A stretch of DNA of 16,532 bases from a virus (lineage: Duplodnaviria > Heunggongvirae > Uroviricota > Caudoviricetes): IMG/VR virus record IMGVR_UViG_2541047434_000024; one strand, written 5' to 3'. Positions 12,001 through 15,000 of the stretch are shown here, piece by piece. Within the stretch, counting starts at the first letter, position 1, and the number at the start of each line of letters is the position of its first letter. Made by a program: the position numbers.

Positions 12001-15000
12001 TGGCGCGCGTCGCTGGTTAGCCAGAAACACTGACTGATGAGGTTGACGATGGAATTTAAAGATTTACCTCCTTCAATCCAGGAGATTGCAGCACACACAC
12101 TTCGTCATCGTCTGAACGAACTTGAATTGGAATCGGTAACGAAAAAAGACACTGATAATATGGCTCGTAATGTGCGCGATGCGTTTACCGGATTGTATTT
12201 CTGTGCGTCTATAAATAAACACGACTCAGAGAGTGTGGCAAATAAAATTGCAGAAACGACAGCGCAAAACATCAATACGAAACCAACGGAAGAAGAAATT
12301 GATCAGTTTGCTCATGATGCTGGTTTAAAAAACAAGAAAGAAAAATCGCCATATGCGGGGAACATGTTTGTTTATGACAATCTCATCAGAATTCGTGGCG
12401 AAATTCCGGCGGAATACCTGGCAAGAGTCCATCAGGCATTGCTTAAAAATTTGGAAACAGAATTATTTGATGGCAACACTAACGGTTTCTTCATGGTATC
12501 AGGCCTTGAGAAAGACTGGGATGCAGAAAAACGCTGGAATGTTGCTACATGGTTATTCAGTAACAGAGCCGCTGCACTGGAAGCTTCGGCATGTATTTGC
12601 GGCCTGTTCTTAACAGACCACAAATATAATCTGGATGTGTACAGTTATATTTACGCTGAACACGGTCCACTCTGGATTGACTGGTAATTATAAGGAAACA
12701 CCAGCAGGGCCGCGGCGACCAACAGAACGATTAAAATCAATAATGCCATTATAAAGGACATTATTTAATTTATCGTCGAATGCTGATTCTGTGAGCCTCA
12801 ACTCTGAATGAGTTTTTAATAACCCTGATTGCCTGAGTTGATTTACCAGGCATTCAATCTGTTTTTCAATAAGCGGATTTCTTTTTTTGTTTGGCATTTT
12901 ATCCTCCATTGAGGTTCTGGGTTAAAAATGGAGACCAACACGCTGTCACGTGTGGTCGTGCGCCGGACACGGATAAGAATCCGGTACTGACAGTTTACTG
13001 AAAGGATATTTCCCTGAAAAGTCAGTGCATAACGCGAAAGCGTACGGCGAAGCTCTTTCCCTTAGAAGGCTTGTCGTTAGATTTCTTCGAACGTGCGCTT
13101 CCGGTTGTGGCACTCCGCGAAATGGCGCGGCGGTAAGTATGGCGGGGTTATTCCTTCCCCATTGAGGACACCGGGTTGTCAGGTTGACCATACGCTTAAG
13201 TGACAACCCCGCTGCAACGCCCTCTGTTATCAATTTTCTGGTGACGTTTGGCGGTATCAGTTTTACTCCGTGACTGCTCTGCCGCCCTTTTTAAAGTGAA
13301 TTTTGTGATGCGGTGAATGCGGCTGAGCGCACGCGGAACAGTTAAAACCAAAAACAGTGTTATGGGTGGATTCTCTGTATCCGGCGTTAATTGTTAACTG
13401 GTTAACGTCACCTGGAGGCACCAGGCACTGCATCACAAAATTCATTGTTGAGGACGCGATAATGGAAACGTTATTACCAAACGTTAATACGTCTGAAGGT
13501 TGTTTTGATATTGGTGTTCTGCTCAGTAACCGGGAGTTTACTGAAGATGCCATTAACATGAGGAAATATGAGCCTTATCTGCTCAATGATAATTCCATAC
13601 TTTCCCGAATTGCTCTTCTTGAACTTGGTATTTTCGGAGAACGTCAATGACTTCAGCATTTGCACTGATGATGACGGTTTTTCTTATAACGGGTGAATCA
13701 CAGAATGTGATTACCGGAATTTATGCCAGTAAAGAATCCTGCCTCCAGGCAAGAGACGAGCAAAAAATTTCTGGTGAATGCCTCCCGGTAAAAAAAGTAT
13801 CGCTGTACCTGAATAACGAAACACCGGCTGGATAACCCTCCAGCCATATTAACACCATACCAACGGATTAAAAATGCCAGCAATGGCAGGGATTTGTTCA
13901 CCCTTAAATCTGTAATGAGGTTTATCAATGAGCACTGATAAAGAAGAATTTGCGCTATATTGCGAAGCAAAAAATGACAAAGTCAGAAAACGTCTGGGAA
14001 TTAAAGGTGGTTTTTACTGGACTACAGCAAAAAAATTATCTGTTGCCATCTCCCGCTGCATTACCGCAATGGATGACAACGATTATGATGAAGACGACTT
14101 TAAAAAACCCGTTCGCGTCCATTTACCCGTTGTGAATGACCTTCCACCTGAAGGCGTGTTTGATACCGAATTCTGCAACCGATACGAAAAAGGCGGGGAA
14201 GATGGCATTACAATGGTATTTATCGCGCCCTCTCCCTCCGTGCAGGAGAAACCAGCCAGTACTGACAATACCAACGTCAACGGCGAAGACATGACGGAGA
14301 TTGAGGAGAATATGCTCCTGCCGGTTTCTGGTCAGGAGCTGCCCATTCGCTGGCTTGCGCAACACGGCAGCGAAAAACCAGTAACGCACGTTGCACGGGA
14401 AGAACTTCAGGCATTACATATAGCACGGGCGGAAGAACTGCCGGCTGTTACTGCCCTGGCCATTTCTCACAAAACAAAGCTGCTCGACCCGCTGGAGATT
14501 CGCGACCTTCACAAACTGGTACGCGACACTGACAAAGTTTTCCCTAATCCCGGTAATTCAGACCTGGGACTGATAACTGCTTTTTTCGAGGCATACCTGG
14601 ACGCTGACTACACTGATCGGGGTCTGCTGACAAAAGAGTGGATGAAAGGAAATCGTGTTTCGCGTATCACCCGTACGGCTTCCGGTGCAAATGCCGGTGG
14701 CGGGAACAAAACCGATCGCAATCCGAATTTAGTACACACCTTCGATACGCTGGATGTGGAGATTGCAGCAGCCACACTTCCGATGGATTTTAATATTTAT
14801 GAAATTCCGGGCAGCGTTTATCGTCGCGCAAAAGAAATCGTCCTGAAAAGAGAAAGTCCGTTCAAAGAATGGTCCGCAGCACTTCGCGCAACCCCGGGTA
14901 TTCTGGACTATTCCCGCGCCGCTATTTTTGCACTTATCCGGAGCGCTCACCCTGAGTTTTATCACTACCCGGGACGCCTTCAGGGGTATATCAACGCCTA

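Follow-up and report, generated by a model that had tools for sequence, protein, structure and literature searches.

The DNA analyzed here, a stretch of 16,532 nt from the IMG/VR record IMGVR_UViG_2541047434_000024 (Caudoviricetes; in the following, the window), contains the gene for the small RNA (sRNA) DicF, followed by the cell-division inhibitor gene dicB and a ydfD-like gene, downstream of a conserved untranslated leader. The results described below show that this region is very probably one of several copies of the Qin-type dicBF operon in enterohaemorrhagic Escherichia coli (EHEC), and that it is located where the pL operon lies, in a prophage that has decayed. Together with Hfq, DicF represses ftsZ and metabolic mRNAs, and it activates pchA in EHEC.

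A reading of this DNA made without database searches (the sequence-only reading) had assigned DicF to a 53 nt segment followed by a T-run, and had placed dicB and a coupled ydfD-like gene behind it; these assignments were confirmed. When the whole window was scanned with gathering thresholds, the Rfam family RF00039 was found on the plus strand at 13236–13287 with 76.7 bits (gathering threshold 48, E-value 9e-16), covering the full model (1–52 of 52). In the alignment to K-12 Qin, the comparison by which that reading could be checked, the annotated 53-mer of K-12 DicF corresponds to 13235–13287, and all bases are identical. The RNA has the architecture of its family, in which a single-stranded 5′ seed precedes a Rho-independent terminator hairpin (helix 13250–13286) and a U-run (TTTTT at 13288–13292). 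It also has the expected context, an extended untranslated part of a polycistronic operon 5′ of dicB, with a ydfA-like gene upstream on the same strand and with dicB starting after a spacer of 174 nt. The DicB protein matched its Pfam family with 125.5 bits (cut-off 27) over residues 1–62 of 62 and is 63% identical to K-12 DicB; the two diverge beyond residue ~35, with a mosaic junction near 13566, so that the C-terminal 27 residues are strongly unlike those of K-12. DicB blocks division through MinC, and its family membership suggests the same MinC-dependent function for the protein encoded here. The ydfD-like gene matched the DUF1482 family with 56.3 bits (cut-off 25), and its product has 45% identity to K-12 YdfD, the hydrophobic N-terminus being conserved. 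It is translationally coupled to dicB through an ATGA overlap, which was read directly from the sequence at 13647–13650. YdfD-family proteins are lytic when overproduced.

The assignment of the region to EHEC is based on comparisons with complete genomes. The segment 12688–13900 matches complete genomes of O157:H7, O26, and O121 at 99.8–99.9% identity, and each of these genomes has 5–10 complete or partial matches to it. The first 16.1 kb of the window are collinear with the genome of the O157:H7 strain TR01 at 99.4% identity. There, the prophage counterpart occupies the ydfJ site, as Qin does in K-12, and a second lambdoid prophage adjoins it in tandem. For EHEC O157:H7, four dicF copies have been described (Balasubramanian et al., 2016; Melson and Kendall, 2019; both as cited in PMC7873438), and, as far as sequence identity can tell, the copy in the window is almost certainly one of the published copies. 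The segment is widespread: at least 80% of it is held by 559 complete E. coli genomes, parts of it are present in 4,730 of 5,426, and the matches occur at a median of two and a maximum of ten places per genome. Further away, a scan of genome contigs with a degenerate 17-base DicF core yielded mostly chance matches in unrelated phyla, and only five of the 72 matches were in Escherichia, Shigella, or Salmonella. The Salmonella loci have DicF itself alone in common with the window. In the TR01 counterpart (2,072,225–2,096,000), nleG-type (DUF1076) effector genes adjoin the tail fibre genes.

Table 1. Positions of the features in the window (aa, amino acids).
Feature	Positions	Strand	Basis
STnc100 copy, bona fide	351–523	-	Rfam; upstream of nanS-p-type esterase
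cro-like gene (P22_Cro domain)	10704–10862	-	extra G at 10731 relative to TR01
CI-type repressor, 212 aa	10954–11592	+	Pfam Peptidase_S24 48.5 bits, HTH_3; phrog_4 residues 2–211
Putative operator, palindrome TGTTTT-N6-AAAACA	11659–11676	+	abuts -35 of the pL-like promoter
Candidate pL-like promoter TTGACC-17-TAAACT	11677–11705	+	promoter scan
K-12 Qin shared segment: ydfA	11847–12028		88% identity
ydfA-like gene (DUF1391), first gene of the operon	11885–12037	+	Pfam DUF1391 102 bits; TR01 annotation
216-aa phage protein, phrog_2151, in place of K-12 ydfB/ydfC	12037–12687	+	PHROG 489 bits
69-aa phage protein, phrog_4274	12688–12897	-	TR01/RefSeq annotation; PHROG 173.7 bits
Conserved untranslated DicF precursor (leader)	12957–13234	+	homology with K-12, consensus structure, K-12 processing data
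K-12 Qin shared segment: leader, DicF, spacer, dicB N-terminus (first 35 codons)	12957–13566		93% identity
DicF sRNA, 53 nt	13235–13287	+	Rfam RF00039; base-for-base identity with K-12 dicF
dicF-dicB spacer, STnc100-like structured domain	13288–13454	+	folding, Rfam STnc100, reciprocal model
dicB, 62 aa, cell-division inhibitor	13462–13650	+	Pfam PF05358; RefSeq annotation dicB
ydfD-like DUF1482 gene, 62 aa	13647–13835	+	Pfam PF07358; RefSeq annotation DUF1482
K-12 Qin shared segment: short stretch before RecE fragment	13874–13922		96% identity
RecE/exonuclease VIII N-terminal fragment	13928–15172	+	Pfam Exonuc_VIII; phrog_607 positions 1–402 of 883; TR01 pseudogene
Integrase C-terminal fragment, 183 aa	15154–15705	+	Pfam Phage_integrase; TR01 pseudogene
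K-12 Qin shared segment: 3′ half of intQ	15160–15757		91% identity

The gap in front of DicF (12898–13234) is bounded on its left by the minus-strand gene for the 69-aa protein. The sequence-only reading had taken all of it, about 340 bp, as a structured non-coding leader, in which it saw no open reading frame (ORF) with a start codon and a Shine-Dalgarno motif. The structured, non-coding character stood; the extent of the leader did not. Most other loci are homologous from ~12957 onward and a subset from ~13029, which indicates that the first ~60 nt (12898–12956) belong to the module of the 69-aa gene and that the conserved leader begins at ~12957. The leader is not peculiar to the window locus, because a ydfC-dicF gap of the same length, 340 nt, is present in K-12 Qin and also in the viable phage Tritos. 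In the shared segment that begins at 12957, few differences from K-12 occur past ~13085.

Could the leader be a decayed or unannotated coding gene? Mechanically, ORFs do exist, for instance one of 95 aa with a TTG start on the minus strand (12946–13233) and one of 46 aa with a GTG start (13025–13165), but the ORF scan of 12898–13234 yielded only short ORFs with such TTG or GTG starts. Across 91 near-identical loci, the length of the longest leader ORF varies widely, from 13 to 76 aa on the plus strand and from 7 to 70 aa on the minus strand, and single-base as well as variable-length indels fall inside the ORFs. The region is without coding annotation in K-12, TR01, and Tritos. Moreover, the folding signal is specific to the plus strand: for 12940–13300, the plus strand folds better than shuffled sequences with z = −2.96, compared with z = −0.76 for the minus strand. 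From the non-ATG starts, the indels, the variable ORF lengths, and the missing coding annotation, the leader can therefore be classified as non-coding, and the probability that it hides a gene is close to nil. An Rfam E-value search of the leader returned nothing 5′ of DicF. One boxB-like motif, CCCUGAAAAG at ~13013, was dropped as it does not form the boxB hairpin.

The window shares four separate segments with K-12 Qin (Table 1) and is therefore a mosaic relative of that prophage. In both, DicF is the same, the untranslated stretch of ~340 nt and the spacer of 174 nt are equally long, a ydfA homologue (88% nucleotide identity) is the first gene of the operon, and at the end there is a fragment of RecE along with an intQ-type integrase remnant. 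However, the K-12 operon (ydfABC-dicF-dicB-ydfDE) is repressed by the 135-aa DicA, whereas the window has an unrelated immunity region with an S24-type CI of 212 aa and other operators. Furthermore, K-12 has ydfB and ydfC where the window has the 216-aa gene and the convergent 69-aa gene, the C-terminal half of DicB and YdfD are diverged in the window, and IS2 is lacking there. More distant parallels are Kil of lambda and KilR of Rac, small toxic division inhibitors whose genes are likewise part of a leftward early operon under repressor control in lambdoid prophages, but that are unrelated in sequence to this module and are not known to have an associated sRNA.

The same block of leader, DicF, spacer, and dicB is present in viable temperate phages, namely the Escherichia phage Tritos, mEp460-type phages, and PPompW prophage-derived phages, with ~93–94% identity and the same junction at ~12957. 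The gene order in Tritos is cro|CI-ydfA-ydfB-ydfC-[340 nt]-DicF-dicB-ydfD-exoVIII-xis-int. In contrast to the window, which has only fragments of them, these phages have full-length exonuclease VIII, xis, and int. A paper from 2016 stated that no viable phages with the module had been found; such phages exist, and this statement is thus to be updated.

Several observations bear on the transcription of the module. The sequence-only reading had linked it to an S24-type CI repressor, and the Pfam matches to Peptidase_S24 and to a helix-turn-helix domain bear this out. The repressor gene has the same orientation as the DicF operon, and in the alignment to lambda CI a serine (in ESDSM) and a lysine (in IRKL) match S149 and K192. 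The palindrome that abuts the −35 element of the pL-like promoter occurs exactly twice in the window, the second copy being located in the cI/cro intergenic region (10937–10954); the expected number is 0.14, and only one of 200 shuffles reached two occurrences. From 11705 to dicB, no sigma-70-like site was found on the plus strand by the promoter scan, and this includes the interval 12898–13461, in which a consensus-like site was also missing. An S24-type CI with an intact dyad together with a shared operator at a pL-like promoter suggests derepressible transcription of the module. Control of this copy by a CI-type switch, and not by the DicA/Rem circuit of K-12, is plausible, though unproven.

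Downstream of the ydfA-like gene, the genes for the 216-aa and the 69-aa proteins converge, with back-to-back stop codons (TAATTA, 12685–12690) and no terminator between them; therefore, the DicF operon would have to be transcribed antisense through the 69-aa gene. The latter has a GGAGGA Shine-Dalgarno motif in front of its ATG at 12897. A promoter-like site on the minus strand (12925–12896) was rejected as its promoter, since it overlaps the Shine-Dalgarno motif and the start codon of that gene. A strongly hydrophobic ORF of 36 aa (MSFIMALLILIVLLVAAALLVFPYN..., 12651–12761, minus strand), which is not preceded by a Shine-Dalgarno motif, overlaps, in a different frame, the 69-aa gene at its 3′ end. 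Searches with Pfam and PADLOC gave no match for the 216-aa, 69-aa, or 36-aa ORFs.

In K-12, DicF is excised from the polycistronic dicBp transcript, and no promoter was detected inside the operon; the 5′ end of a 190 nt species is generated by RNase III, and that of the 53 nt RNA by RNase E (Ragunathan et al., 2023). The 3′ end of DicF results from the intrinsic terminator or, on read-through RNA, from RNase III, which yields a 72 nt species. To relate these products to the window, a consensus structure was derived from 93 unique DicF loci and mapped onto it. This structure predicts a long hairpin at 13035–13103, with a lower stem (13035–13047/13088–13103) and a hypervariable apex (13048–13087; majority frequency 0.80 over 104 unique loci). 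A long-range helix (13104–13111/13211–13218) is predicted to close a multi-helix core of 115 nt (13104–13218). It is followed by a hairpin (13225–13232/13239–13246) that pairs the DicF seed region and has AAUUUU in its loop, and, after the DicF terminator, by a helix of 21 bp (13295–13315/13426–13446).

The predicted helices fit the cleavage products published for K-12. Counting 190 nt back from the terminator leads to ~13098–13103, in the 3′ arm of the long hairpin and directly before the closed core. The DicF 5′ end at 13235 is located in the AU-rich hairpin loop, and 72 nt from this end is ~13306, in the middle of the 21 bp helix. By homology with the nearly identical K-12 sequence, we infer the following pathway for the window copy. 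Transcription would start at the repressor-controlled pL-like promoter (~11677–11705), and the transcript would pass through the ydfA-like gene, the 216-aa gene, the antisense of the 69-aa gene, and then the conserved untranslated precursor of ~280 nt. RNase III would cut the 3′ arm of the long hairpin at ~13098–13103 and thereby release the 190 nt species, consisting of the closed core and DicF. RNase E would then cut the AU-rich loop of the seed-sequestering hairpin at 13235 and generate the 5′ end of the 53 nt DicF, and the intrinsic terminator (13250–13292) would form its 3′ end. Read-through RNA would be cut by RNase III within the 21 bp helix (~13306), which would give the 72 nt species, and would carry dicB and the coupled ydfD-like gene. 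Promoter use and repressor control in the source strain are likewise what we infer.

Alternatively, the leader might have a promoter of its own, in which case DicF (or dicB) would be an independent transcription unit and not a processing product. An older study, as cited in Ragunathan et al. (2023), proposed a promoter upstream of dicB, and the convergent gene between pL and the leader would make an internal promoter useful. However, in addition to the negative promoter scan described above, primer extension and Northern blots show no additional promoter in K-12, and the 5′ end of the 190 nt species vanishes in K-12 without RNase III (Ragunathan et al., 2023). From ~13085 to dicB, the window is almost identical to K-12. 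We therefore consider an internal promoter highly improbable and retain processing from a long polycistronic transcript.

The spacer between dicF and dicB is itself structured. Its minimum free energy is −65.5 kcal/mol (z = −5.16), and none of 200 shuffles was as stable. The predicted closing helix is extended (21–28 bp), such that the U-run of the terminator is base-paired with GAGGA (13450–13454), the Shine-Dalgarno motif of dicB. The Rfam family STnc100 (RF02076) was detected at 13299–13439 with 35.5 bits and an E-value of 5e-6, below the gathering threshold of 47; the spacer is thus related to STnc100 but, by the Rfam criterion, no member of it. The reciprocal search agreed: a covariance model built from 14 DicF-linked spacers alone found the bona fide STnc100 copy of the window at 349–511 on the minus strand, with 51.2 bits (rough E-value 4e-13). 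Four pairs of the closing stem differ in both bases between the spacer and STnc100, and the hairpin is CCGGG/CCCGG in one and CCUGG/CCAGG in the other. Like the spacer, STnc100/PasD has a closing helix, a GGUGAAU junction, and CCNGG-AGGCA-CCNGG and UUAA/UUAAC-type hairpins, and it is located just 5′ of a gene in a lambdoid prophage. STnc100 differs in position, being sited in front of the nanS-p esterase, downstream of the stx/late region, whereas the spacer is part of the early-left operon and follows DicF, and the closing helix of the spacer is much longer. In the papers found on STnc100 and PasD, neither DicF nor dicB was linked to them. Taken together, these similarities indicate a modest new relationship: the spacer is structurally related to the prophage sRNA STnc100.

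In five loci on viral contigs (L062, L098, L100, L120, and L166), the STnc100-like domain is followed by another Shine-Dalgarno motif and start codon, for example GGAGATAATTATG, and not by dicB. As the domain precedes different ORFs in some loci, the RNA domain and the downstream gene apparently recombine independently. When the DicF loci were searched with nhmmer for more spacer-like copies, the only matches besides the DicF-adjacent copies were ones of which the top-ranked examples match the same hairpin on the opposite strand.

These features raise the question of whether the core (13104–13218), the STnc100-like spacer, or both are also cis-regulatory, either as a put-like processive antiterminator that would carry RNA polymerase past the DicF terminator or as a translational gate for dicB. 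Such a role would be compatible with the origin of the module proposed above and does not exclude it. Over 104 unique loci, the majority frequency is 0.96–0.99 for the non-coding elements, with 0.97–0.98 for those of the leader, compared with 0.92 and 0.80 for dicB and 0.83 for ydfD; however, this estimate is biased, the loci having been ascertained through the DicF core, and it may reflect the recent spread of one module. The exceptional folding of the spacer, the pairing of its U-run with the dicB Shine-Dalgarno motif, and its homology to STnc100, which also precedes a gene, point in the same direction, as does the fact that no gene for an N-like antiterminator was seen in the operon by Pfam and PHROG scans. 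On the other side, the core domain has no match to an Rfam family and lacks covariation support. On balance, a cis-regulatory role seems rather unlikely, though far from negligible. The more specific idea that the spacer may be an unrecognized member of an STnc100/PasD superfamily, which acts in cis as a dicB gate on read-through transcripts only, is similarly tentative. In such a gate, the closing helix would pair the U-tract with the dicB Shine-Dalgarno motif and create an RNase III site, and DicB synthesis would need RNase III cleavage or helix opening. It is also a possibility that the equally conserved 115 nt core domain of the 190 nt species has a function of its own.

The state of the surrounding prophage was assessed from the window and from its TR01 counterpart. 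Both recE and the integrase gene are truncated (Table 1). The integrase fragment is 91% identical to the 3′ half of the K-12 pseudogene intQ, and no ORF is present between the two fragments; xis is therefore absent. The intact integrase and the excisionase of a viable lambdoid prophage are thus not present. The cro-like protein has 52 aa compared with 80 aa in TR01, as a result of a +1 frameshift, and the overlap of its gene with the ydaT-like gene is lost. Intact cro, lysis, and morphogenesis genes were not found either: the late genes are outside the window, and in TR01 they are deleted or disrupted, with the terminase lost, the capsid and endolysin genes truncated, the portal gene frameshifted, and J split. 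Compared with TR01, the window has six single-base insertions within 50 bp (15113–15160) where the RecE fragment meets the integrase fragment; this A/G-rich sequence may be slippage-prone or poorly resolved.

The sequence-only reading had considered that the module may belong to an inducible phage, and in its strongest form this view would make DicF and DicB early lytic genes of a functional, SOS-inducible temperate virus. The S24-type CI keeps the Ser/Lys dyad of the self-cleavage apparatus, the operator is shared by the pL-like promoter, viable phages of the Tritos, mEp460, and PPompW types carry the module, and the O/P-type replication genes that the sequence-only reading had also recognized are annotated as intact in TR01. 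However, RecE is truncated, only the C-terminal part of the integrase is left, xis is missing, cro is frameshifted, the late genes of the TR01 counterpart are broken, and the cleavage site of CI is Ala-Ala. A functional phage is thus quite improbable, and the element in the window is a prophage remnant. In the O-like gene (9086–10147, minus strand), a 12 bp difference in repeat number from TR01 is located at 9643–9654, within a run encoding DKDT repeats, possibly the repeat region of iteron/origin type in this replication gene. The late-regulatory region of the window contains a hok/sok toxin-antitoxin locus (5702–6013, minus strand; 113.5 bits for sok) as well as two phage-borne tRNA genes (1296–1369 and 1473–1545, minus strand), annotated in TR01 as Arg and Ile tRNAs. 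Together, these are typical of Stx-phage-like prophages.

Four points weigh against the picture of a derepressible, K-12-like DicF operon in this remnant. First, in the alignment to lambda CI, the cleavage site of the repressor is Ala-Ala and not Ala-Gly, and SOS induction is therefore uncertain. Second, the operon is unlike that of K-12 upstream of 12957, and it is possible that the convergent 69-aa gene cuts the flow of transcription from pL into DicF by transcriptional interference. Third, the cleavage positions were mapped from published fragment lengths and not from sequence-resolved ends. Fourth, covariation neither supports nor contradicts the consensus structure: two pairs change on both sides, a number equaled in 64 of 500 shuffles, and 99.6% of the cells are paired in the consensus structure of the 93 unique loci, which are ~90% or more identical, so that covariation is uninformative.

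DicF, DicB, the untranslated precursor, its processing by RNases III and E, and the occurrence of several copies in EHEC are all already published. What goes beyond the literature is the CI-type control of the window copy, itself only probable, and the STnc100-like leader of dicB. In addition, a coordinate-level map now ties the published species of 190, 72, and 53 nt to predicted helices. If the spacer were indeed a gate, the sRNAs STnc100 and PasD would be processing products of a modular leader cassette that is placed before different prophage genes. DicF and DicB tie the derepression of a prophage to host cell division, sugar metabolism, and phage resistance and, in EHEC, also to the expression of pchA and the locus of enterocyte effacement (LEE) and of stx2. 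Because of this link to LEE/pchA and stx2, each additional copy of the module, together with its repressor, is relevant to virulence regulation.

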